Shown here piece by piece: positions 478 through 10,450 of a stretch of DNA of 11,293 nt; position 1 is the stretch's first letter, and the number at the start of each line of letters is the position of its first letter. The notes under the pieces are model-generated. The model had not been told where the DNA came from, did not search any database, and saw only the letters and a program-made list of their open reading frames with translations. The stretch comes from Candidatus Thorarchaeota archaeon. Lineage in GTDB: Archaea > Asgardarchaeota > Thorarchaeia > Thorarchaeales > Thorarchaeaceae. Where the stretch lies: NCBI GenBank assembly GCA_029858305.1, contig JAOUFI010000074.1:1-11293 (forward strand). The letters are read 5' to 3'. A program made the translations under genes and the position numbers.

Positions 478-503
478 TATTATAAACGGGCCGGAGCACA
501 AGC

Positions 504-511
504 TTTTAAAA
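504..511 (+). promoter_or_regulatory. Probable TATA box for rpl40e
   Basis: TTTTAAAA ~80 nt upstream of the ATG at 590. A second AT-rich candidate (TTATAAA) lies at 480-486. Confidence 0.4.
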
Positions 512-589
512 CAGAACACCGGTGGAAAGCCCGAGCGGGCTCATCAGAGAATTCTCTAACCGCCAAAAACACGAAGAGGTCAAAGAAAG

Positions 590-748
590 ATGCCAGTAGC
601 TGACATCGAAAAACGCAGGCTTGCACAGTACTACTTGCTGTATAAATCAGTATGCCGATATTGCGGAGCAACTAATCCCCTTAAGGCAAAGAAGTGCAGA
701 AAATGCAAGACAAAGGACCTCAGACCAAAGAGGCGTTCAAAGAAGTAA
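590..748 (+). CDS. rpl40e: 50S ribosomal protein L40e (52 aa, not ubiquitin-fused; absent from the ORF track)
   Basis: Manual translation: [52 protein letters not shown]. It has the eL40 zinc ribbon CxxC..NP..A..CRKC and LRPK. A GAGGT SD-like sequence lies upstream. Confidence 0.95.
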
Positions 749-773
749 TCATCTGATGAATGAGCCGACTTAC

Positions 774-850
774 GGGCCGGTGGTCTAGTCGGCTATGACG
801 TCGCCTTCACATATAATATGCTGTTGCATTCTGCGGGAAGCGGCGAAGGT
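774..850 (+). pseudogene. tRNA-Val(CAC) 5' portion A (positions 1-47) with a 29-nt 37/38 intron (812-840); T-arm and 3' acceptor strand absent
   Basis: Exons GGGCCGGTGGTCTAGTCGGCTATGACGTCGCCTTCACA (774-811) and CGGCGAAGGT (841-850) differ from the intact tRNA at 3040-3147 only in the D-loop and position 47. The BHB is imperfect (TTCA/GGGA has one mismatch). Confidence 0.85.
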
Positions 851-879
851 GCTTCAGTTTAATTACAATATATTTCTCT

Positions 880-2355
880 CTAAGTTATCTGAGCTCTCTC
901 CAGCTCCTTCAGTCTGTTAATTACTCTCGCCCGCATAGTCTTAACTGTCATTGAATCTGTAATTTCCAATGCATTGATTAACGTCTGCTTGGCTGCTTCA
1001 TGCTCTCCAATTGCGACTTGGTATTCTGCTTTTAGCAGTGCATACTTAATCTTGATGCCTAGGTAGTTCTTTTGATACACATGTTTTCGCAGACGAGTCA
1101 TCCATGGACCCGATGTTTCAGCATCTCGGTCATCTTGTGAAGCATTCACAAGCTCCGATATTTCCACTTTTGTAAGGGCTATTAGACATTCATTCACAGT
1201 GATTTGAAAATGAGAATCGCCCATCTCCAAGCACTGCTGAATGAGTTCCCTAGCTGATGTAATATTCCCAAGTGCCAAATCTAAGAGCCCCTGAACATAG
1301 AGGTAGCTCATCATATCCTGTTCATTTCCTGAATCCATCGCTTGTCTTTGTGCAATGTTCAAATATCCGGCCGCTCGGTCCAATTCGTTTTTCAACAGAA
1401 GTGCTAATGCCATGCTTGAATTGAGCTGCGCGTGATCAAATTCGAATGATTTAGAGTATATTTGCAGCCATTCAATAGATTCTTTTGGCTGTTCAAGGGC
1501 ATTATGAATTCTGGCTGCTACGAGACTGGTTAACATTCTAGGGGTTTCAGAATAACTTGAAATAACTTCGAATTCTTCTCTAACCAGCTCCAACGCCATG
1601 TCATACTCGCCAAGAGCTTCATACGCAATGGCCATGATTATCGCAACTGCAGTGACTGCATTTCTCCTACTATCTCTTGTTTTGGCCATTGTATATGCTT
1701 CATCGAGTATCTCCAAACCTTTGTGAACATCGAAGTCTTTGATTATGTTACCCTTAATTGCAAGCAGGCTGACAATTTCGAGAATATCATCGTATTCCTT
1801 TGCTATTTCCAAAGACTCATCGAGAACACTAATTGCTCCATCAACATCTCCCTGACTTCGTAATGAATACTGTATACTGCCAGCGATCAGCGGAAGAAAC
1901 CTACGCATTTCGTGTTGTTTCTCAACAGACTCCCTTGCTAATTCAACGTATTTCGAGAAGTTTGGTTCCCCCAGTATCCAGACTCCAAGCACATAGAGAT
2001 GGAAGAGAATCCAATTATCTGAAGTTGCATCTATCGCTTGTTGAAGTGCAATAGCCGCCTTATTCTGGTCTTCCTTCAACACCTGATCTTCATATTTGAA
2101 GAAGAGGAATGGTCTTGTGAGAACTGATTCGCTACATCGCTTCTTCATCTTTTGCCAACAATCTTGATAAGTAATCGCATGGATAATCGAGAAGAACACC
2201 AAGTCTGAACTAATCGGATGGTTCTTGGACTCTTCTACAATATTGACAACAAAATCACGATAGTCTCCAGACTCGTTTACAATTGATTCAATGACTTCTT
2301 TAATTTCATCGGTGAGAAAGGGATAGTACAACGAGATTGTTCCGATTGACTTCAT
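880..2355 (-). CDS. Alpha-helical repeat (TPR-like) protein, ~491 aa; likely leaderless start at MKSIGTIS (2355) rather than 2409
   Basis: Long ORF with repeated TPR-like helices (GDVDGAISVLDESLEIA, AIAYEALGEYDMALEL, LGNITSARELIQQCLE, IGEHEAAKQTLINALEI). TTTATA lies 26 nt upstream of ATG 2355. Confidence 0.8.
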   Translation of the reverse strand: MKSIGTISLYYPFLTDEIKEVIESIVNESGDYRDFVVNIVEESKNHPISSDLVFFSIIHAITYQDCWQKMKKRCSESVLTRPFLFFKYEDQVLKEDQNKAAIALQQAIDATSDNWILFHLYVLGVWILGEPNFSKYVELARESVEKQHEMRRFLPLIAGSIQYSLRSQGDVDGAISVLDESLEIAKEYDDILEIVSLLAIKGNIIKDFDVHKGLEILDEAYTMAKTRDSRRNAVTAVAIIMAIAYEALGEYDMALELVREEFEVISSYSETPRMLTSLVAARIHNALEQPKESIEWLQIYSKSFEFDHAQLNSSMALALLLKNELDRAAGYLNIAQRQAMDSGNEQDMMSYLYVQGLLDLALGNITSARELIQQCLEMGDSHFQITVNECLIALTKVEISELVNASQDDRDAETSGPWMTRLRKHVYQKNYLGIKIKYALLKAEYQVAIGEHEAAKQTLINALEITDSMTVKTMRARVINRLKELERAQIT

Positions 2356-2380
2356 CTTACTGAGAGAAACATAACTCCGA

Positions 2381-2386
2381 TATAAA
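2381..2386 (-). promoter_or_regulatory. TATA box of the TPR-like gene
   Basis: Minus-strand TTTATA at the spacing expected for a leaderless transcript starting at ATG 2355. Confidence 0.55.
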
Positions 2387-2474
2387 TCAAAGTGGAAATG
2401 ACTTTTCATCGTTTATAGTTACACTGAGCGTCTAAACAGCTCGGAACTTCAAGATATGCAATTGATTGTTTCTC

Positions 2475-2488
2475 CGCCATTCTTAAAT
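2475..2488 (+). promoter_or_regulatory. BRE/TATA promoter upstream of tRNA-Val 5' portion B
   Basis: CGCCATTCTTAAAT ends 32 nt before G1 and is 12/14 identical to CGTCATTCTTATAT upstream of the intact tRNA-Val. Confidence 0.65.
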
Positions 2489-2519
2489 ACAAATGCCCTC
2501 GTTTGACCCTTTTAGGACA

Positions 2520-2596
2520 GGGCCGGTGATCTAGTTGGCCATGACATTGCCTTCACATGTTGGGTTCGATTGTATTCAACTGGAAGCAGTGAAGGT
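2520..2596 (+). pseudogene. tRNA-Val(CAC) 5' portion B (positions 1-47) with a 29-nt 37/38 intron (2558-2586); T-arm and 3' acceptor strand absent
   Basis: Exons GGGCCGGTGATCTAGTTGGCCATGACATTGCCTTCACA and CAGTGAAGGT. The BHB is good (central TTCA/TGGA, bulges CA^T and AG^C, inner helix GTTGGGT/ATTCAAC), but the exon stems have A10-C25 and C31-A39 mismatches. Confidence 0.85.
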
Positions 2597-2676
2597 GATC
2601 CAAAAACTGCTCCGAAAACTAGGTAATTTCGTCTAGTTGAACCATTTGGCGTAATGACAATCTCAAATCCTGATAA

Positions 2677-2862
2677 CTACGTCCAGTGTCTTTTGATGTT
2701 ATAGCGAAGCAGGACTAGTCCAATGATAAGAATAACGACACCAAAACTTAATGTTTCTGTGAACTGTGATCCTCTAACTAGCATGTCAACTCCCATCCAA
2801 ATAAATAGCCCACCTACGCATGGGAAAAGGATTGCCAGCTTCCCGGACACTCGCTCATCCAA
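2677..2862 (-). CDS. Small hypothetical membrane protein (61 aa, two predicted TM helices)
   Basis: Two hydrophobic segments (LAILFPCVGGLFIWMGV, LSFGVVILIIGLVLL) and a basic tail. The TTG start has a GGTGA SD and an AT-rich TATA-like stretch near 2895-2906. Confidence 0.65.
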   Translation of the reverse strand: MDERVSGKLAILFPCVGGLFIWMGVDMLVRGSQFTETLSFGVVILIIGLVLLRYNIKRHWT

Positions 2863-2927
2863 CAGACTTCACCACATTTCACTAGAGTTCAAGAATTTAT
2901 ATTATAGCTATATAGCATAGTATTAGT

Positions 2928-3019
2928 CTCGTGGATTTCGGAGGATTTCTAAATGGCGGGTGTTTATTCAATTATCACTTGAAGCTGTACGATTCACTTG
3001 TTTTAAGCACTCGTGGATT
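2928..3019 (-). repeat. Two copies of AATCCACGAG (2928-2937, 3010-3019) containing tRNA-Val positions 47-53
   Basis: Plus-strand CTCGTGGATT occurs twice, and CTCGTGG also occurs inside the intact tRNA at 3093-3099. Confidence 0.7.
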
Positions 3020-3039
3020 AAGAAGATTGTTGAATAAGA

Positions 3040-3147
3040 TGGTGGGCCGGACGAGATGTATTCCATTTCGAGGAGGTCTCGAAAAGTTCGAACTCGTGGC
3101 CTTCGCCGTGTGAAGGCGACGTCATAACCGGTCTAGACCACCGGCCC
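3040..3147 (-). tRNA. Intact tRNA-Val(CAC) with encoded CCA and a 30-nt non-canonical intron at 58/59 (3058-3087)
   Basis: Acceptor GGGCCGG/CCGGCCC plus ACCA; anticodon stem TCGCC/GGCGA with CAC at 3112-3110; T-stem ACGAG/CTCGT. The BHB (GTTC/GAAT, bulges GA^A and AC^A, inner hairpin TTTCGAG/CTCGAAA) restores the T-loop TTCGAAT after splicing. Confidence 0.95.
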
Positions 3148-3173
3148 ATATACTATTCGGGAAAGTCTACAAG

Positions 3174-3187
3174 ATATAAGAATGACG
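3174..3187 (-). promoter_or_regulatory. BRE/TATA promoter of the intact tRNA-Val
   Basis: Minus-strand CGTCATTCTTATAT ends 27 nt upstream of G1. Confidence 0.7.
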
Positions 3188-3220
3188 CTGAAAGATATCT
3201 GTGGTCATTCCAATTGGATT

Positions 3221-3246
3221 CTAGCGAAGTCGCTCCCGGCGCACCA
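3221..3246 (+). other. tRNA-Val 3'-end-like element A
   Basis: C-TAGCG-AAGT-CGCTC-CCGGCGC-ACCA: 10 of the last 11 nt match the tRNA-Val 3' end. It has a T-stem-like AGCG/CGCT but only a 4-nt loop. Confidence 0.5.
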
Positions 3247-3283
3247 TACTTGTTATTTGCTCTCTGTATGTAAATTGATGATA

Positions 3284-3300
3284 CAGCGTTACAGTTATAA
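3284..3300 (+). promoter_or_regulatory. Probable BRE/TATA promoter for rpl38e
   Basis: CAGCGT-N5-TTATAA has the same layout as CAGCGT-N5-TTATAT in the divergent tRNA-Val promoter. Confidence 0.6.
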
Positions 3301-3333
3301 CCCAACCAATCGACCTCCGATTAGTCACGCTGG

Positions 3334-3361
3334 ACTGATTCAAGTCATGTCCGGCTCACCA
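3334..3361 (+). other. tRNA-Val 3'-end-like element B in the rpl38e leader
   Basis: TTCAAGT-CATGT-CCGGCTC-ACCA (3339-3361) is 18/23 identical to the spliced tRNA-Val positions 54-76. CCGGCTC pairs fully with GGGCCGG (one G-U). Confidence 0.55.
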
Positions 3362-3387
3362 CCAAAAGAGCATAATGGGGCGTTTCA

Positions 3388-3603
3388 ATGCCAAAACAAA
3401 TCACTGATGTCGACAAGTTCCTCGAGATGACTGAGGATGCAGTAGAGTGCCGGGTTAAGAGAAACACGAATTCAGTCAAGCTCAAACTCCGCACGACCAA
3501 CTACCTCTACACTATCATTCTTGAACCCCAGAAGGCTGAAGAAATCATCCAGCAAGTGAAGTGTCAGGTCGTTGAGGCACGAACAAAGGCCGAAGAAGCC
3601 TAG
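3388..3603 (+). CDS. rpl38e: 50S ribosomal protein L38e
   Basis: MPKQITDVDKFLE, VKLKLRTTNYLYT and the ~70-aa length match eL38. Confidence 0.92.
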   Translation: MPKQITDVDKFLEMTEDAVECRVKRNTNSVKLKLRTTNYLYTIILEPQKAEEIIQQVKCQVVEARTKAEEA

Positions 3604-4865
3604 AAACTTATCTTCTCATTAAGCTCTGCAACATGTGCTTTCCTTCCCCGTTTCTCTAGTTTTTCTGCAAGGGCATCACAAGACTCTGACTCACCGTGTA
3701 CGAGGTAGAACTCAGGTTCACCGGGTATCTTCGTGAGCATATCAAGAAGTCCTCTAGAGTCTGAGTGGGAAGATAGATGATGCTGGCGGACATCTGCAGT
3801 CACATTGAATTCACGACTTCCTACAACCACTTTTCCAGTTCTGAGAAGTTCCTCACCTGGAGTACCAGGAATCTGAAAACTCACAAACACAATAGCGTTC
3901 TTAGGATCATCGTGTAACATCTTGAAATAGAGATGAGAGGCGCCACCCTTGAGCATCCCAGCAGGGGAGATAATTATACCACCTTTCCGGACTGCATCTT
4001 TTCGGTCACGATCGTCATTGATGATAAGAGCACGCCCAACTGCTCTCTGGAGAGCTTGAGGACTTTGGAGGTATTGTGGGTGTCGCACAAGTATCTCATC
4101 GACTTCTCGAGCCATTCCATCAATATATATTGGATATTTCTTTGGGAGATTTGCACGTTCTAGAATGCACATTATCTCCTGACTTCGACCAACCCCGAAC
4201 GCAGGAATGAGGACGGTGCCTCCACGTTCTTTTGTTTCTATAACAGTCTGGATGAGCGCTTCCTCAGTTGTTTCCCTTGGAGGATTGATACGACGGGCAT
4301 AGGTACTTTCAGTTACAACAATATCATGCTTTGGAAGGTTCTTTCTCGCTCCAGGGGTGAGATGGGATTCGATGGCATTGAAGTCTCCTGTGAATAAGAT
4401 TCGTTTCTCATCTACTCTAACCGAAACCATAGCACTTCCAGGGATATGACCTGCGTTGAACAGAGTCATCTCAAAATGACGGCCTAGGGGCATGGTTTCT
4501 TCATAGGAGATAGATTCGTATTGTCTGCGCACTAATGCTATATCCTTGAGCGTAAATGGCAATCTACCATGTGATATCTTGTACATATCTCGAAGAAGAA
4601 GAAGACTAAGATCACGTGTCGCGGGAGTGCAGAAGAGCGACGCCTCAGTTTCTTTTAGAATGATTGGAAGACCTCCTGAATGATCAAGATGAGCATGTGT
4701 GAGAGCAACTCCTTGAAGATTCTCAACTGGTATCATGTCAGGAAACTTCGGAGGTTCTGAGAATTTGACGCCATAATCTACAAGAATACTCTCATCTTTT
4801 GCTTCTAAGAAAAATCCTGAACGACCAACCTCTCGGCAAGAACCGAGGAATGTTAATTTTGCCAT
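3600..4865 (-). CDS. Metallo-beta-lactamase/beta-CASP ribonuclease without N-terminal KH domains (aCPSF2-like, CPSF73/YSH1 family)
   Basis: Motifs EVGRSG, THAHLDH, AGHIPGS, TGDF, TESTY, GRSQE, SSHSD and VHGE. Confidence 0.92.
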   Translation of the reverse strand: MAKLTFLGSCREVGRSGFFLEAKDESILVDYGVKFSEPPKFPDMIPVENLQGVALTHAHLDHSGGLPIILKETEASLFCTPATRDLSLLLLRDMYKISHGRLPFTLKDIALVRRQYESISYEETMPLGRHFEMTLFNAGHIPGSAMVSVRVDEKRILFTGDFNAIESHLTPGARKNLPKHDIVVTESTYARRINPPRETTEEALIQTVIETKERGGTVLIPAFGVGRSQEIMCILERANLPKKYPIYIDGMAREVDEILVRHPQYLQSPQALQRAVGRALIINDDRDRKDAVRKGGIIISPAGMLKGGASHLYFKMLHDDPKNAIVFVSFQIPGTPGEELLRTGKVVVGSREFNVTADVRQHHLSSHSDSRGLLDMLTKIPGEPEFYLVHGESESCDALAEKLEKRGRKAHVAELNEKISF

Positions 4866-5461: not shown

Positions 5462-6049
5462 ATGAAACTGCCTATTTGTAACTTTGATTTAGAATCAGAT
5501 ATGCTATGTCCCAATTGCCAAGCTAGGTTCGACCGTGGGGAAATCACGCAGTTTGATATCGAGTTCAGCAAATGGATGTTGGATAAGGAGAAAAAATACC
5601 CCAATATCGAAAATCTGAACATTCTGAAAGCGGCCAAGGCAGAAACCCGTCTAATCCTAGTGGTGAAGAAAAAGAACAAGGAACTTTTGCTCTCTGAGGA
5701 GTCCCTAGTACAGGAATTATTCGAGCAATTCGGAGAACTCATTGTCATAGAGGGGCCAGCCAAGTTGAGAACGGTAGTCAGAGAATTCATTTTTCCTGCA
5801 ATAGAAGTTGGTGTCAATAATCTCTACTCTCCAGATGGAACGAAAGAAAGCATCGTCATGCTTCGAGAGGGGGATAGAGAGAGAATTAAATTCAGCAAGG
5901 ATGAGCTTCGTACCATTGTATCCGCAATCATGGGCGAATCAGTCCTATTTGAGTATCAAGATGACCGTAGGCAACTGATTAAGGAAGAAGAGGTCAAGGA
6001 CGAATTTGAGCAACGGATGAAAGAGCTTGAAGAACACCGTGCCAGGTAG
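5462..6049 (+). CDS. NusA-like transcription factor paralogue with an N-terminal Cys cluster (NusA2 type)
   Basis: PIC.FD...DMLCPNCQ N-terminus followed by degenerate KH-like segments, located directly downstream of albA. Confidence 0.75.
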   Translation: MKLPICNFDLESDMLCPNCQARFDRGEITQFDIEFSKWMLDKEKKYPNIENLNILKAAKAETRLILVVKKKNKELLLSEESLVQELFEQFGELIVIEGPAKLRTVVREFIFPAIEVGVNNLYSPDGTKESIVMLREGDRERIKFSKDELRTIVSAIMGESVLFEYQDDRRQLIKEEEVKDEFEQRMKELEEHRAR

Positions 6050-6055
6050 ATAAAG

Positions 6056-7396
6056 CTACACCCGATTGATTGGATGGTTTTTCATCAATTCACGGAGAAC
6101 TACAGTGGCATAGGATCCTTTCCTCAAGCAAAATGCAACACGAAGACCTTCTTCTGTATTTGATGCCACAAGATCGTCTATAATGATTGCAGCCAGATGG
6201 AGCCCTCCTGGAGAATCGAGAGATTTCATCTTTGGACTCCGAAAATCCTTGAGTGTAATTCCTTCCTCAATCAGGAGCGATTTGAGTGCTTCTGTCTGTG
6301 AAGCAGGCGGTAGACGGGTTGCATATCCAGGTACTGGAAGCGCTAATCCGTACTCACTTCGTTCTACTTGCGCAATTCGCTCTTCAAGGGATGCCTCTGT
6401 AACATAGAGCCATGAATCTCTCCCTGAATGTGTAGTATCCAGTTCGATAAGGAAATCACCAGGTTCCGGTTCGACTATGGACATTCCTGCTTCGATACGT
6501 CGACTTAGAAGACGGTTGAATAGAAAGGATTGGTAGGCATGTACCATTAGTGTGAGTATTCGTGGTGATACTCTTTGTAGGGCGCGTTCAAATTCACCGG
6601 GATATTTGATGAGTTCATGTAGGATTTTTCGTTCGTAACTCAGATCCTTTGGGAAGGATTCAATCATCTTTTCATTTGGCGTAAAATCTTCGGTTAATCT
6701 CAATCGGATATCCCTAAGCTCCTCTGTTTCAAACGCACTTTCTGTACACAGCATTGTTCGAACGGCATTCTCAAAATCACGCTTGACAAGAAATTTTCCA
6801 GCAAGATGAGTATTCGGGCGATTAAGCCCAAACCTCTGAACTCCAAAATAATTGAGTAATGGAGTTTCTCGAACTATTTCTGCTGCTCTCAAAGCTATGT
6901 CAGGCTCTATTTCTAAATCTCTTAGAAGGATTGTGAATTTGTTTCCCCAGAGATCACCTATTTGGATAGGATGTCGTGTGTACGAATAATCGCGGATAAC
7001 AATACGGGTCAAATCTAACTCCATCAGACCAGCTATTGTGCGAGATGGTGCCGACATCAGTTGGACAGTAATTGCGCGTTTGTCCTTTAGGCCAGCATAG
7101 GTCACTAAATTTCTGGGCAGCTTCAGGGAGGATGCAAGGATTGTTGAAACATCCATGGTTGAAATTCCCATCTTCTGAACGGTGAAAGTCACGAATCGTG
7201 ACTTCTGTCCTTCTACTACTGCGTTTCTACTAGTTACTTCCTGCCATTCCTTAAAACCGATTAATCTGCCATCAGAAGCAATCTCTTCGACTAAGAAATC
7301 TTCGTACCTCGTTTTTAGCTTGCCACCAATTCCAATACTATCTGTGGAATAGAATTCCATTCCAAATGGCTTTTCAAACGGATGGCCCACCTGCAC
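6056..7396 (-). CDS. truD: tRNA pseudouridine(13) synthase; probable GTG start at 7396, as the ORF-track start overlaps pth2
   Basis: Motifs EDFLVEE, YAGLKDKRAITVQ, GDLWGNKF, NYFGVQRFG, AYQSFLFN and KGSYAT. A GAGGG SD precedes the in-frame GTG. Confidence 0.95.
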   Translation of the reverse strand: MQVGHPFEKPFGMEFYSTDSIGIGGKLKTRYEDFLVEEIASDGRLIGFKEWQEVTSRNAVVEGQKSRFVTFTVQKMGISTMDVSTILASSLKLPRNLVTYAGLKDKRAITVQLMSAPSRTIAGLMELDLTRIVIRDYSYTRHPIQIGDLWGNKFTILLRDLEIEPDIALRAAEIVRETPLLNYFGVQRFGLNRPNTHLAGKFLVKRDFENAVRTMLCTESAFETEELRDIRLRLTEDFTPNEKMIESFPKDLSYERKILHELIKYPGEFERALQRVSPRILTLMVHAYQSFLFNRLLSRRIEAGMSIVEPEPGDFLIELDTTHSGRDSWLYVTEASLEERIAQVERSEYGLALPVPGYATRLPPASQTEALKSLLIEEGITLKDFRSPKMKSLDSPGGLHLAAIIIDDLVASNTEEGLRVAFCLRKGSYATVVLRELMKNHPINRV

Positions 7397-7406
7397 GAAT
7401 ATCCCT

Positions 7407-7778
7407 CTATAATAGCTTGAGATCACCGGTGACCTTGTCCATAACTTCAGCTCTTGCAGGTCCAATACCTAGTACGGTGATAGTTCCAGGAGGCAGTTCA
7501 GTCATTCCGGCATCACGAATCAAGGCATGAGGCAATCTATGATTTATTGCCTGTCTTCTGAGTTCTAGGAGTTCCTCCTCGGAAGATACTTTGACAGCTA
7601 CCTTCTTCTGGCCTTCTCTATACCATGCCCGCCAAATTTCTTGCTGTGAAACACGGGCATTCTCTGATGCACTCAATGCACCATGTGCTACCTGCACTGC
7701 AATTTTGCCTCTACTCATCGCCAAATCTGTCCTCACAGCAATGACTTGTTTGTATTGGAATTTACTTGGAATTGACAT
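7407..7778 (-). CDS. pth2: Peptidyl-tRNA hydrolase Pth2 (start at 7778 favoured; 7790 possible)
   Basis: KQVIAVRTDL.MSRGKIAVQVAHG, GQKKVAVKV, IRDAGMTE, LGIGP and VTGDLKLL. GGAG lies before the second ATG. Confidence 0.95.
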   Translation of the reverse strand: MSIPSKFQYKQVIAVRTDLAMSRGKIAVQVAHGALSASENARVSQQEIWRAWYREGQKKVAVKVSSEEELLELRRQAINHRLPHALIRDAGMTELPPGTITVLGIGPARAEVMDKVTGDLKLL

Positions 7779-7845
7779 TAGAACTCCCATAGGTCTTCCG
7801 AGGAGAGAGTTAAAAACGTGCCCTCAGCATGATTGTTTGGGTACA

Positions 7846-9048
7846 ATGATGGATCATGATGCTATTGTCATTGGCGGTGGACCAGCGGGTCTCTTTGCAG
7901 CCACAGAGATAGCTAAGAAGGGATTTGATGTTCGTGTACTAGAAGAGCATGAGCGAGTTGGTGCACCGGACCACTGTGCAGGGCTTCTTAGTGCGTCAGG
8001 GCTTAAGCGATTAGGATTGAACTTACCAGATAAGGTCATACAGAACACAGTATCTAGTGCAAAGATTTACGCACCATCTGGACATTCTATCACGATTGAA
8101 CGGGGAAGAAGAGAGGCGCATGTCATTGATAGAAGACAGTTTGATGCATGGCTAGCAACTGAAGCAATGAACATAGGTATAGATATCACAACAAATGCAA
8201 AAGCGAGCGAGTTTGTTAGAGCAGGACCTTATAACCATAAGATCAAGATTAGGGGAAAAATCGATTCTGAACTCATGTCCCATGCATATATCATAGCGGA
8301 GGGTTCTCGATGTCGATTATCGGGAAGTATTGGGCTCCCCACGGTTGAAAAATCTAGCAAGTATCCCGCGTTTCAGTATGAAGTTTCTGGTGTCGATATC
8401 GATAATGAGATGGTAGAGATGTTCTATGGGCGCAATGTAGCCCCAGGATTCTTTGCTTGGATTATTCCACTTGGAGAAAAGAGAGCTCGAGTCGGGCTAG
8501 CTTCTCAAAACCAATCAAAGTTACGACTCGACGCATTGATGCGCCATCATAATATAATATCAAAAAGATTGGAAGGAGCAAAGATTGACCGGTCTCTCGG
8601 GGGTATTGTATTGGTTGGAATGCCAATTACAAGAATGACATGTCGAAATATCATCACCGTGGGAGATGCCGCTGGAATGGTGAAAGCCACAACTGGAGGC
8701 GGTGTGATTATAGGTGGACTAACTGCCAGACTAGCTGGCAAGATCATTGCCGAATATCTAATTCGCGAAGCAAAAACGACTGAAATCAAAAAATATGAAA
8801 AACAGTGCAAATCAATGGTTTTTGATGAACTGAGAACGATGTATTTTGCTCAGCGTGCGCTTTCCTCACTGAGTGATAAGGGACTGGATTCGATAATCAA
8901 GGATACAGCCAATCTGGGACTTTTAGATGTTGTAAAGAGCGAAGGAGACATGGACCTCCAGAGTAGGGTCATAAGGAAGCTACTGACTGACCCACGGATG
9001 GTGTTGACTGGGCTCAGAGCAATTAGGTACATCAATCCGTTTTTATGA
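7846..9048 (+). CDS. Geranylgeranyl reductase family FAD-dependent oxidoreductase (DGGGPL reductase-like); real start 7846 or 7849, not 7591
   Basis: VIGGGPAG, HCAG, IDRRQFD, APGFFAWIIP and VGDAAG..KATTGGG. The upstream extension is antisense to pth2. Confidence 0.9.
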   Translation: MMDHDAIVIGGGPAGLFAATEIAKKGFDVRVLEEHERVGAPDHCAGLLSASGLKRLGLNLPDKVIQNTVSSAKIYAPSGHSITIERGRREAHVIDRRQFDAWLATEAMNIGIDITTNAKASEFVRAGPYNHKIKIRGKIDSELMSHAYIIAEGSRCRLSGSIGLPTVEKSSKYPAFQYEVSGVDIDNEMVEMFYGRNVAPGFFAWIIPLGEKRARVGLASQNQSKLRLDALMRHHNIISKRLEGAKIDRSLGGIVLVGMPITRMTCRNIITVGDAAGMVKATTGGGVIIGGLTARLAGKIIAEYLIREAKTTEIKKYEKQCKSMVFDELRTMYFAQRALSSLSDKGLDSIIKDTANLGLLDVVKSEGDMDLQSRVIRKLLTDPRMVLTGLRAIRYINPFL

Positions 9049-9079
9049 ACAAGTGCGAGTCAGGAACATCAGGAGGCCA

Positions 9080-10450
9080 ATGTCTATGACTAACCATGAA
9101 GAGTATAGTGTGCTGGAAACTGCACGTAAGATGCTAGTACAGCACCCACTCTGTGATCGTTGTCTAGGTAGACAGTTCGCTTGGTTGGGCAGTGGGACCA
9201 CAAACGAGGACAGAGGTCATTCCATTAAGCTCACGCTGTGTATGATTGCTGATAAGGAAATAAAATCGGGGGACAAAGCATCAGGAGAACATACTTTGGC
9301 AATCCTAGCTGGCAATGGTATGTTTGCTCCGGCAAGAACTATTGCAACTAAGAACTCGATTGAGTACGTAACGAGTGATAGCTGTCATTTATGCTTCATT
9401 GATGGAAGCTCAATATTTGAAAAAATCCCACTAATTACGGAAAGAATGGTTGGCATAGCAGACCAAGTTGAGTTCGAAACTTTTCTTGCAGGATGTGTGC
9501 CTTCTCCCTTGCTTGTGGAACGTCAAGATGAGATAAGCGCAATACATTCTGCTCTGTACTCAGAAACTCTAAAGTCCCACTTCAATCGTCTTGCAGGAAT
9601 TCAACTCCAAGAACTATTGGGGAAATCTGTTGATTTTGAAAAACCTGATGTTGTATTCATCTATGACATGAATAAGGATGAGGTAGGACTTCACGTGAAT
9701 CCTATCTTCATCTTCGGAAGATACAAGAAATTGGTGCGAGGCATCCCCCAGAGCAGATGGGACTGTAAAAAGTGTAAGGGCAGAGGGTGCGAGGAATGCG
9801 AGGGGACGGGAAGAAATTACCCCGACTCTATATCTGAATATGTTGGTATTCCTGCTCAACAGTGTGCAGGAGGCTCTCGTTTTAAGTTCCATGCTGCTGG
9901 AAGAGAGGATGTAGATGTCCTCATGCTAGGCAAGGGAAGGCCGTTTGTTGTGGAAATAAGTAAACCTAGAGTACGGAAACCGGATCTCCTTGAGATGGCA
10001 CAGACTATAAACCAAGAAGCTGCAGGTAAGATTGAGGTTCATGACCTCGAACTCACTGACAGGCATCGACTCCAAAAGCTGAAGGAAGATGCTGCATCGA
10101 ATATCAAAGAGTATGCTGCAATCATTCATACAGAGGGGTTGGTGACTGACGAAGCAATTCAAAGAGTAATTCAGTCATTTCAAGGCGCTACAATAGAACA
10201 AAGGACTCCAAACCGTGTATCTCATAGAAGGAGTGATTTAGTAAGAAAGAAAAAAGTACACGGGATTAAATTGACAAAGCTAGAAGAGGGGATTCTTGAA
10301 GCATTCTTCAAGGTTCAAGGCGGCACGTACATTAAGGAGCTAATCTCAGGCGATGATGGGCGTACTAAGCCATCTGTTGCAGAAATTCTTGGTACTGCTT
10401 GTGTGTGCAAGGTGCTGAATGTTACCGCAATATATAGCAGCGAGAATTGA
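9080..10450 (+). CDS. pus10: tRNA pseudouridine(54/55) synthase Pus10 (start 9080 or 9086)
   Basis: LCDRCLGR, GRYKKLVRGIPQSRW, AAGREDVDV.MLG.GRPF, QRTPNRV and GGTYIKELISGD.GRT.PS. AGGAGG SD at 9071-9076. Confidence 0.95.
   Translation: MSMTNHEEYSVLETARKMLVQHPLCDRCLGRQFAWLGSGTTNEDRGHSIKLTLCMIADKEIKSGDKASGEHTLAILAGNGMFAPARTIATKNSIEYVTSDSCHLCFIDGSSIFEKIPLITERMVGIADQVEFETFLAGCVPSPLLVERQDEISAIHSALYSETLKSHFNRLAGIQLQELLGKSVDFEKPDVVFIYDMNKDEVGLHVNPIFIFGRYKKLVRGIPQSRWDCKKCKGRGCEECEGTGRNYPDSISEYVGIPAQQCAGGSRFKFHAAGREDVDVLMLGKGRPFVVEISKPRVRKPDLLEMAQTINQEAAGKIEVHDLELTDRHRLQKLKEDAASNIKEYAAIIHTEGLVTDEAIQRVIQSFQGATIEQRTPNRVSHRRSDLVRKKKVHGIKLTKLEEGILEAFFKVQGGTYIKELISGDDGRTKPSVAEILGTACVCKVLNVTAIYSSEN

Follow-up and report, generated by a model that had tools for sequence, protein, structure and literature searches.

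In the tRNA gene cluster of phages T4 and T6, the reports on SegB, in the parts drawn on here, describe a free-standing homing endonuclease of the GIY-YIG type that cuts tRNA genes at a recognition site including a conserved T-arm motif, and that spreads with neighbouring tRNA genes when homologous recombination repairs the break, a process that can duplicate segments (PMC2330249; PMC13096335). In the archaeon Caldiarchaeum subterraneum, the passage on tRNA-Thr(GGU) describes a complete gene that has gained an extra intron and, 1.8 kb upstream, the 5′ fragment of an older tRNA gene; the insert between them is multi-copy and encodes a DNA-binding or recombination-type protein, and the locus is polymorphic in a natural population (PMC3293823). 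Here we analyse the interval between the ribosomal protein genes rpl40e and rpl38e in a Candidatus Thorarchaeota archaeon (contig JAOUFI010000074.1). The window, by which we mean the whole stretch of DNA analysed, is the entire contig C95 of 11,293 nt, from a metagenome-assembled genome (MAG) of 3.04 Mb in 205 contigs, with 43% G+C and a completeness of 88.9%. The interval is a scarred insertion hot spot. Its ancestral tRNA-Val(CAC) gene was split at 47/48 by an insert, 851–3333, that carried a TPR gene and a complete spare tRNA-Val gene (gene B), and the spare gene was later split at the same position by a second insert, 2597–3220, bearing an inverted complete tRNA-Val(CAC) gene. The two 5′ portions and two 3′-like elements left behind are decaying stumps. 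We regard it as likely that the full explanation joins these nested scars to a family of nuclease genes that drove the insertions.

Two nested broken tRNA-Val genes

The elements on which this reading rests are as follows.

774–850, + strand: 5′ stump A, tRNA-Val(CAC) positions 1–47, with an anticodon-loop intron at about 812–840; broken at 47/48
851–3333, strand not applicable: outer insertion, containing the TPR gene, tRNA-Val gene B with its promoter-like stretch, and a TATA-like stretch; absent from empty-site genomes
2520–2596, + strand: 5′ stump B, positions 1–47 of a second tRNA-Val(CAC), with a 37/38 intron; decayed
2597–3220, strand not applicable: inner insertion, containing a small membrane-protein open reading frame (ORF), the inverted tRNA-Val and its promoter-like stretch
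3147 to 3040, − strand: intact tRNA-Val(CAC) that encodes its CCA and has a T-loop intron of 30 nt at about 3057–3086
3221–3246, + strand: 3′ stump a (3′ element A), what is left of gene B's T arm and acceptor strand
3334–3361, + strand: 3′ stump b (3′ element B), decayed T arm and acceptor strand of the ancestral resident gene

A preliminary description of the sequence had listed seven elements in this interval, and all seven sit where it placed them. Alignment to intact orthologues bears out its statement that both 5′ portions end at position 47. The 3′ ends of the tRNA pieces are also marked by an 11-nt pattern (3′ acceptor strand, discriminator and CCA, with at most one mismatch), which occurs three times in the window, at 3040–3050 on the minus strand and at 3236–3246 and 3351–3361 on the plus strand, against 0.04 occurrences expected; none of 200 shuffled sequences reached three matches.

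The origin of the stumps can be read from genomes of the same genus. We searched 24 of these (G001 to G024, with G000 for the genome of the window) at the DNA level and extracted the rpl40e–rpl38e interval from each. Stump A occupies the site at which 12 relatives hold an intact tRNA gene, and its D-loop variant is that of the nearest relative, G007. At the other end, the G007 tRNA can be matched column by column, over its T arm, acceptor strand and CCA and on into its flank, to stump b and the sequence downstream of it. The G007 alignment, the shared D-loop variant and the resident position argue that stumps A and b are the two ends of the ancestral gene, which now lie 2.5 kb apart. The inner pair finds its counterpart in G003, in which the two parts of gene B, separated in the window by the inner insertion, are contiguous. 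Window positions 2464–2562 are 84% identical to the G003 stretch that runs from an upstream region into an intact tRNA-Val, and the 3′ end and downstream flank of that intact gene align with stump a and its flank. Since the intact G003 gene aligns on both sides, stumps B and a were once one gene, now 624 nt apart. Both pairings of stumps with genes of relatives confirm the nested order, and with the empty sites described below they support the first of three readings offered in the preliminary description, namely successive nested insertions at a single tRNA site.

The stumps are decaying, at different rates. Two of five pairs remain in the T stem of stump b; stump B keeps two of four pairs in its D stem and four of five in its anticodon stem; stump a has a shortened T loop and a mismatch between G2 and G71. 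Stumps A and B form an 83-nt direct repeat of 75% identity, and their first 38–39 nt match the inverted intact gene at 92% (A) and 87% (B). In a genome-wide blastn search these first 38–39 nt were matched on the window contig only.

Apart from the inverted gene at 3040–3147, no intact Val(CAC) gene was found in the assembly. The Rfam model RF00005 has its sole match in the window at 3074–3147 on the minus strand, with 30.7 bits against a gathering score of 29 while the intron is in place, and ARAGORN calls no tRNA in the full window. The 30-nt T-loop intron accounts for the missed ARAGORN call, and likewise for the Rfam score covering only 3074–3147. Once the intron is removed, ARAGORN calls a perfect tRNA-Val(cac) of 78 nt. 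Judged by its sequence, then, this inverted, intron-containing gene is the one copy that still works.

Empty sites and recurrence among relatives

Comparison of the interval across relatives, a check that the preliminary description had proposed, revealed empty sites: an uninterrupted tRNA-Val(CAC) is found in 12 of the 24 genomes. The states of the locus are these.

Empty site, on the rpl40e strand, with an interval of 128–192 nt holding only one uninterrupted tRNA-Val(CAC): G004, G006, G007, G008, G010, G015, G016, G020, G021, G022, G023, G024
Intact gene and one 3′ stump, interval of 267 nt: G005
Long interval of 809–3699 nt: G011, G012, G014, G017, G018
Locus divided over contigs: G001, G003, G009, G013
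Contig stops straight after rpl40e: G002
rpl40e–rpl38e locus not found: G019

The layout of the window, with a 5′ stump, cargo, an inverted intact tRNA and one or more 3′ stumps, recurs in G001, G009, G012, G013 and G014. The 5′ stump ends at 47/48 in G009 and at 48/49 in G012, and such ends cluster at 47–53. The intron content of the uninterrupted genes varies, from none to an intron at 37/38, in the T loop, or at both places.

The state of the locus changes over short evolutionary distances. A maximum-likelihood tree was made from 22 rows of the beta-CASP protein encoded next to the locus, leaving out G012, for which only 228 aa were available. In it, G000 is the sister of the empty-site genome G007 with support of 98/95, and presence or absence of the insertion does not track the phylogeny of this neighbouring gene. 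The three states of the locus (empty, direct with stump, and inverted) require at least eight changes on the tree. Sequencing runs point the same way at still closer range. In an independent run, a strain with 1 difference in 313 nt over rpl40e has a contig that enters an intact, intron-less tRNA, and in three runs, among them a minor variant of the source run, an intact T arm and acceptor strand lie beside rpl38e. Intact alleles in near-identical strains indicate that the locus is polymorphic among very close relatives.

A direct-orientation form of the same phenomenon is present elsewhere in the window's own genome, on contig C111 (7775–9289). A tRNA-Val(GAC) with two introns (7775–7914, + strand) is met by a converging remnant of an HNH gene with an in-frame TGA (8124 to 7933); a membrane-protein gene follows, and then, 1.4 kb further on, a well-kept 3′ stump of positions 48–76 at about 9261–9289, starting at 47/48. 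Contig C192 of this genome has an orphan tRNA-Val-like 3′ piece, from T loop to CCA, at 2077–2100 behind a membrane-protein gene.

The remaining features of the interval are its flanking genes, its cargo and the stretches upstream of its tRNA pieces.

590–748, + strand: rpl40e, left flank of the hot spot; Pfam Ribosomal_L40e, E 3.8e-6; syntenic across relatives
880–2409, − strand: TPR-repeat protein gene (cargo), with matches to Pfam TPR families
2464–2519, + strand: promoter-like stretch of gene B, 56 nt upstream of stump B; resembles the G003 upstream stretch
2677–2862, − strand: 61-aa hydrophobic ORF (cargo), no Pfam match
3148–3195, − strand: promoter-like stretch ahead of the inverted tRNA; gene B has a related one
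3285–3301, + strand: conserved TATA-like stretch, about 35 nt upstream of 3′ element B
3388–3603, + strand: rpl38e, right flank; Pfam Ribosomal_L38e, E 1.3e-12

The TPR gene occurs at the rpl40e–rpl38e locus in no relative examined. Its paralogues are found in other cargo and at other sites, at 27% identity in the cargo of G013 (L025, 2558–4099) and at about 73% DNA identity in G019 (contig C288) and G014 (contig C13), and their positions suggest that the TPR cargo gene belongs to a family that travels with such inserts. The 61-aa ORF has one paralogue in the genome, on contig C107, with 47% identity over 60 aa and a similar upstream stretch. The promoter-like stretch of the inverted tRNA is conserved in G001, G013, G012 and G014; the window contains an inverted repeat of 80% complementarity between 2469–2488 and 3174–3193.

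The TATA-like stretch is found in 11 genomes, just upstream of the rpl38e-proximal stump. As it is better conserved than the adjoining stump, its sequence marks it as probably the rpl38e promoter in insertion-bearing genomes. In empty-site genomes rpl38e begins 25–30 nt past the tRNA CCA with no TATA-like stretch between them (the counterpart in the window is 3362–3387), and this short gap suggests that rpl38e is there co-transcribed with the tRNA.

Further along the window, within 7 kb of the hot spot, are genes for the two tRNA pseudouridine synthases TruD (6056–7465) and Pus10 (9053–10450) and for the beta-CASP nuclease (3600–4865); that they lie so close is probably coincidence. On contig C34 of the same genome (45911–49983) ARAGORN lists four tRNA genes in 4 kb (Arg GCG twice, Val AAC and Arg CCG), an unusual cluster for an archaeon.

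A candidate nuclease driver and its rivals

Just upstream of the intact B-type tRNA, G003 has an open frame of 756 aa whose 5′ end is open. The frame comprises many helix-turn-helix (HTH) units resembling sigma-70 region 4, and two C-terminal Cys/His modules. In the family to which it belongs, both modules have invariant Cys and His residues, and matches to PHROGs profiles named HNH endonuclease reach E 2.4e-20 for the whole protein and 7e-6 for the C-terminal part. Homologues lie inside the insert in G009 and G012, where they converge on the inverted tRNA with 6–18 nt between stop codon and tRNA 3′ end, and HTH/HNH remnants occupy the same place in G001 and G013.

The family is present in 15 of 28 genomes of the genus, often in several copies; a further search for related loci, made with a family alignment of six rows, reaches close relatives only, and the range described here is that within Thorarchaeota. 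Of the 27 family loci examined, an initial 7 and 20 more, 22 have a tRNA or part of one beside the gene, distributed as follows.

Intact tRNA converging on the end of the HNH gene: 14 loci
Only a tRNA piece at the end of the HNH gene: 4 loci
Same-direction tRNA close to the HNH gene: 4 loci
No tRNA or piece detected by the HNH gene: 5 loci

Among the tRNAs concerned are Val (CAC, GAC and TAC), members of class II and further types. For a genome of 3 Mb with about 46 tRNA genes, arithmetic puts the chance of a tRNA within 40 nt at less than 0.1% per gene end.

Several further loci show how varied these neighbourhoods are. At L045 one HNH gene is surrounded by as many as four 3′ pieces of a single tRNA, with both orientations represented (4162–4190, 4442–4464, 5609–5637 and 6003–6026), and this layout is repeated at the orthologous loci L043 and L044, hence in three genomes. 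At L063 a class II tRNA is broken at 53/54, its stump (1355–1451) stopping just past the T stem's 5′ strand; precisely this position, 53/54, is occupied by an intron in the complete copy (3219–3335) that lies behind the HNH gene. In a Saccharibacteria MAG record (L068, 2545–5807) the HNH modules have a weak homologue (E 2e-12) within an array of 13 tRNA genes.

The tRNA-Val(TAC) locus of genome G043 (L046) presents the architecture of the window at another gene, in a much younger insertion. Behind the resident promoter-like stretch stands a stump of positions 1 to about 52 (2432–2484), followed by an HNH gene, an inverted complete tRNA-Val(TAC) (4013–4122) whose first 46 nt are identical to the stump, two small genes, the normal downstream flank and the neighbouring tRNA. 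Both flanks of the insert are syntenic with 12 relatives that hold an uninterrupted gene, and Pfam detects no recombinase domain or integrase in the insert. The uninterrupted gene has a 45/46 intron in all 12 readable relatives (L070–L082; the contig of a thirteenth ends inside the gene). The G043 stump lacks this intron and the cassette-borne copy has it, a pattern that fits an intron protecting the gene from the nuclease, in one case only.

We propose that free-standing endonuclease genes of this family, encoding an HTH array and two HNH-like zinc modules, would be the driver. The protein would cut the DNA of a tRNA gene close to where the variable loop meets the T arm, a site to which the clustering of 5′ stump ends gives the one indirect pointer, and repair would copy in the nuclease gene together with a linked tRNA copy. 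Because the linked copy would arrive with the nuclease gene, the host would keep its tRNA function; from the window the nuclease gene would since have been lost. It is possible, and we say so tentatively, that Thorarchaeota host in this way an archaeal counterpart of the homing endonucleases of phage tRNA clusters, one that cuts at the variable loop/T arm border and spreads with a spare, often intron-bearing copy of the tRNA it destroys.

A number of observations weigh against the proposal. No HNH gene or remnant was detected in the window, with tblastn and low-stringency blastn both applied to 2597–3045, and so we infer the driver from the relatives. These are kin and several HNH loci are orthologous, hence the counts above are not independent. 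The assignment of the modules is itself uneven: Pfam returns HTH matches with HNH weak at E 0.056, a Foldseek list of PDB matches to the confident C-terminal model (predicted local distance difference test, pLDDT, 92.3) is led by HNH nucleases with none below E 0.5, and phmmer against PDB sequences gives no match for the HNH protein. In G003 the HNH gene runs in the same direction as its tRNA, and the cassette is therefore not one rigid unit. Break points at further loci spread from about 25 to 58, and the insert ends have no conserved termini in common. In addition, the independent run X2 has a 135-nt contig from a diverged relative (8 differences in 66 nt) in which a B-like 5′ half ends at 2596 and is continued, in the same orientation, by opposite-strand sequence from 3071, made up of the last part of the T-loop intron and the 3′ end of the gene. 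Inversion, through recombination of tRNA pieces that face each other, may have played a part.

Other explanations have to account for the same scars. Classical integrative elements would do so by successive tyrosine- or serine-recombinase integrations that leave att copies of tRNA parts, followed by decay and loss of the integrase. Archaeal tRNA genes are described as integration sites in the parts of the literature considered here (PMC3218864; PMC3293823), and such an origin would suit G005 and contig C111 of G000, where a 3′ stump follows an intact gene in direct orientation. An integrase, however, rebuilds its target, whereas in the window both targets stay broken and a complete spare gene arrives with its promoter-like stretch, often inverted. 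The preliminary description had cautioned that no recombinase lies in the window, and Pfam analysis agrees: neither the window proteins nor the cargo of G009, G012, G014 and G043 contain a tyrosine or serine recombinase domain, and the recent G043 insert consists of an HNH gene, a tRNA and two small genes only. We consider integration of this kind improbable. Less probable still is an invertible tRNA gene, the second reading of the preliminary description, in which a single 3′ half serves opposed promoter-bearing 5′ halves, and site-specific or homologous recombination turns over the segment between them to build alternative tRNA-Val genes. The product predicted for such a flip holds for one half: stump A joined to positions 48–76 of the intact gene folds into a complete cloverleaf, but the join with stump B, itself decayed, folds poorly. 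Stump A and the intact gene contain, in their 5′ parts, inverted repeats of each other (22 nt at 95% and 18 nt at 94%), the G043 stump and inverted gene share their 46 identical nt, and the X2 contig has its joint of 2596 with 3071; that joint lies 27 nt off the predicted inversion point and would leave no working T arm. A single arrangement is present in the source-run contigs, which can miss rare forms, and no invertase or recombinase was detected by Pfam in the window proteins. All copies have the same anticodon, so flipping gains nothing, and inversion leaves the two 3′ stumps and the empty sites unexplained. As a working system, inversion is therefore not supported. A related model, a single flip of promoter plus 5′ half between inverted 3′ halves (G003 against G013), was given up as the main model, since both G009 and G000 have promoter plus 5′ half in duplicate and G043, with its syntenic flanks, has a plain insertion.

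Could the pieces instead be split tRNA genes, transcribed apart and trans-spliced as in Nanoarchaeum and Caldivirga, as the preliminary description offered in third place? The promoter-like stretch kept by stump B and the TATA-like stretch ahead of 3′ element B would be in keeping with separate transcription. The pairing of the B trailer with the leader of 3′ element A, a 7-bp run with p about 0.012, would also speak for split genes; the pairing of the A trailer with the 3′B leader spans 5 bp with p about 0.40, and a non-nested pairing of the A trailer with the 3′A leader also reaches 7 bp, with p about 0.036. The pairings either come close to chance expectation or fail to single out the nested order. 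Against trans-splicing stands the intact tRNA-Val(CAC) at 3040–3147 on the minus strand. The joined halves, moreover, do not fold: A with 3′B has two of five T-stem pairs, B with 3′A is flawed in all four arms (acceptor 6/7, D 2/4, anticodon 4/5 and a 4-nt T loop), and ARAGORN finds no tRNA in either join. Trailers and stumps vary among relatives, the trailers differing in G009 and G012, and stumps decay at unequal rates. On these grounds we reject split tRNAs, which we think have next to no chance of being the explanation. A bulge-helix-bulge at 47/48 was likewise dropped, as the 3′ stumps cannot form a T arm. Equally remote is an artefact of assembly at repeated tRNA sequence, which the preliminary description had named as a danger. 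At 11.3 kb the window is a short piece of an assembly in 205 contigs, and in several relatives the assembly breaks off at the locus; public contigs of the probable source run, made by another assembler, nonetheless bridge every junction. Aligned over window positions 500–3700 they span all three junctions, at 782–2508 and 2479–3341, and contradict a misassembly (runs X3 and X4 cover only parts of this region). The same layout is seen in five other genomes, and the repeats are only 75–92% identical.

Meaning and comparison with known systems

By themselves, scars at an archaeal tRNA gene are nothing unusual. What the nested insertions add is a single-copy essential RNA gene that is repeatedly destroyed with its function kept, since each insert supplies a replacement, and a hot spot at which cargo genes and a probable new rpl38e promoter accumulate. 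For annotation, tRNA “halves” in Asgard MAGs can be scars and not split genes, and standard finders can miss working tRNA genes there, as the empty ARAGORN result for the window illustrates. If Thorarchaeota do host such a counterpart of the phage enzymes, tRNA stumps, the turnover of tRNA introns and the cargo at Asgard tRNA loci would be products of one conflict, and the old idea that tRNA introns shield genes from mobile elements would become testable; the G043 and L063 loci point that way. If the nuclease is the driver, the tRNA-gene homing endonucleases of T-even and T5 phages would extend to archaeal chromosomes, and selfish nucleases would be linked, concretely and testably, to the unusual intron content of archaeal tRNA genes. 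Our literature search, confined to main articles, among them PMC11529989 and PMC8813620, found no paper on nesting with complete, often inverted replacement genes, or on a link to an Asgard HTH-array tandem-HNH protein.

Archaeal integration of the SSV/pNOB8 type resembles the window in that tRNA genes are hot spots and partial tRNA copies bound the insert. As treated in the passages used here (PMC3218864; PMC3293823), those elements encode an integrase and the target is rebuilt from an att copy, whereas here no integrase was found and the target stays broken. The split and permuted tRNAs of Nanoarchaeum, Caldivirga and Staphylothermus, on the part of the account we draw on (PMC3218864), likewise consist of separate 5′ and 3′ pieces in an archaeal genome. 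Their pieces, however, are the sole source of the tRNA, fold correctly and have long complementary leaders and trailers, none of which holds for the window.

The tRNA-Thr locus of Caldiarchaeum is the closest archaeal precedent, within the passage that describes it, for a stump and a complete gene around a multi-copy insert. It differs in its direct orientation, in a break at about position 27 and in an element that supplies only the 5′ part of the gene; nesting, an inverted spare gene and an HNH protein are not reported in that passage.

For the HNH cassettes, which would cut tRNA genes, SegB of T4/T6 would be the closest analogue. As far as the SegB passages go, the two systems share a nuclease gene, here a putative one, placed among tRNA genes and an association with many tRNA isotypes. 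A second phage comparison likewise involves site-specific endonuclease genes among tRNA genes, and the passage concerned has no layout of a stump plus a spare gene. SegB is a GIY-YIG enzyme of a phage, and the Thorarchaeota proteins combine HNH-like modules with a long HTH array on an archaeal chromosome. The outcomes differ as well: in the SegB passages the result is marker exclusion or tandem amplification, whereas at the Thorarchaeota loci it is a broken resident gene accompanied by a spare copy, often inverted.

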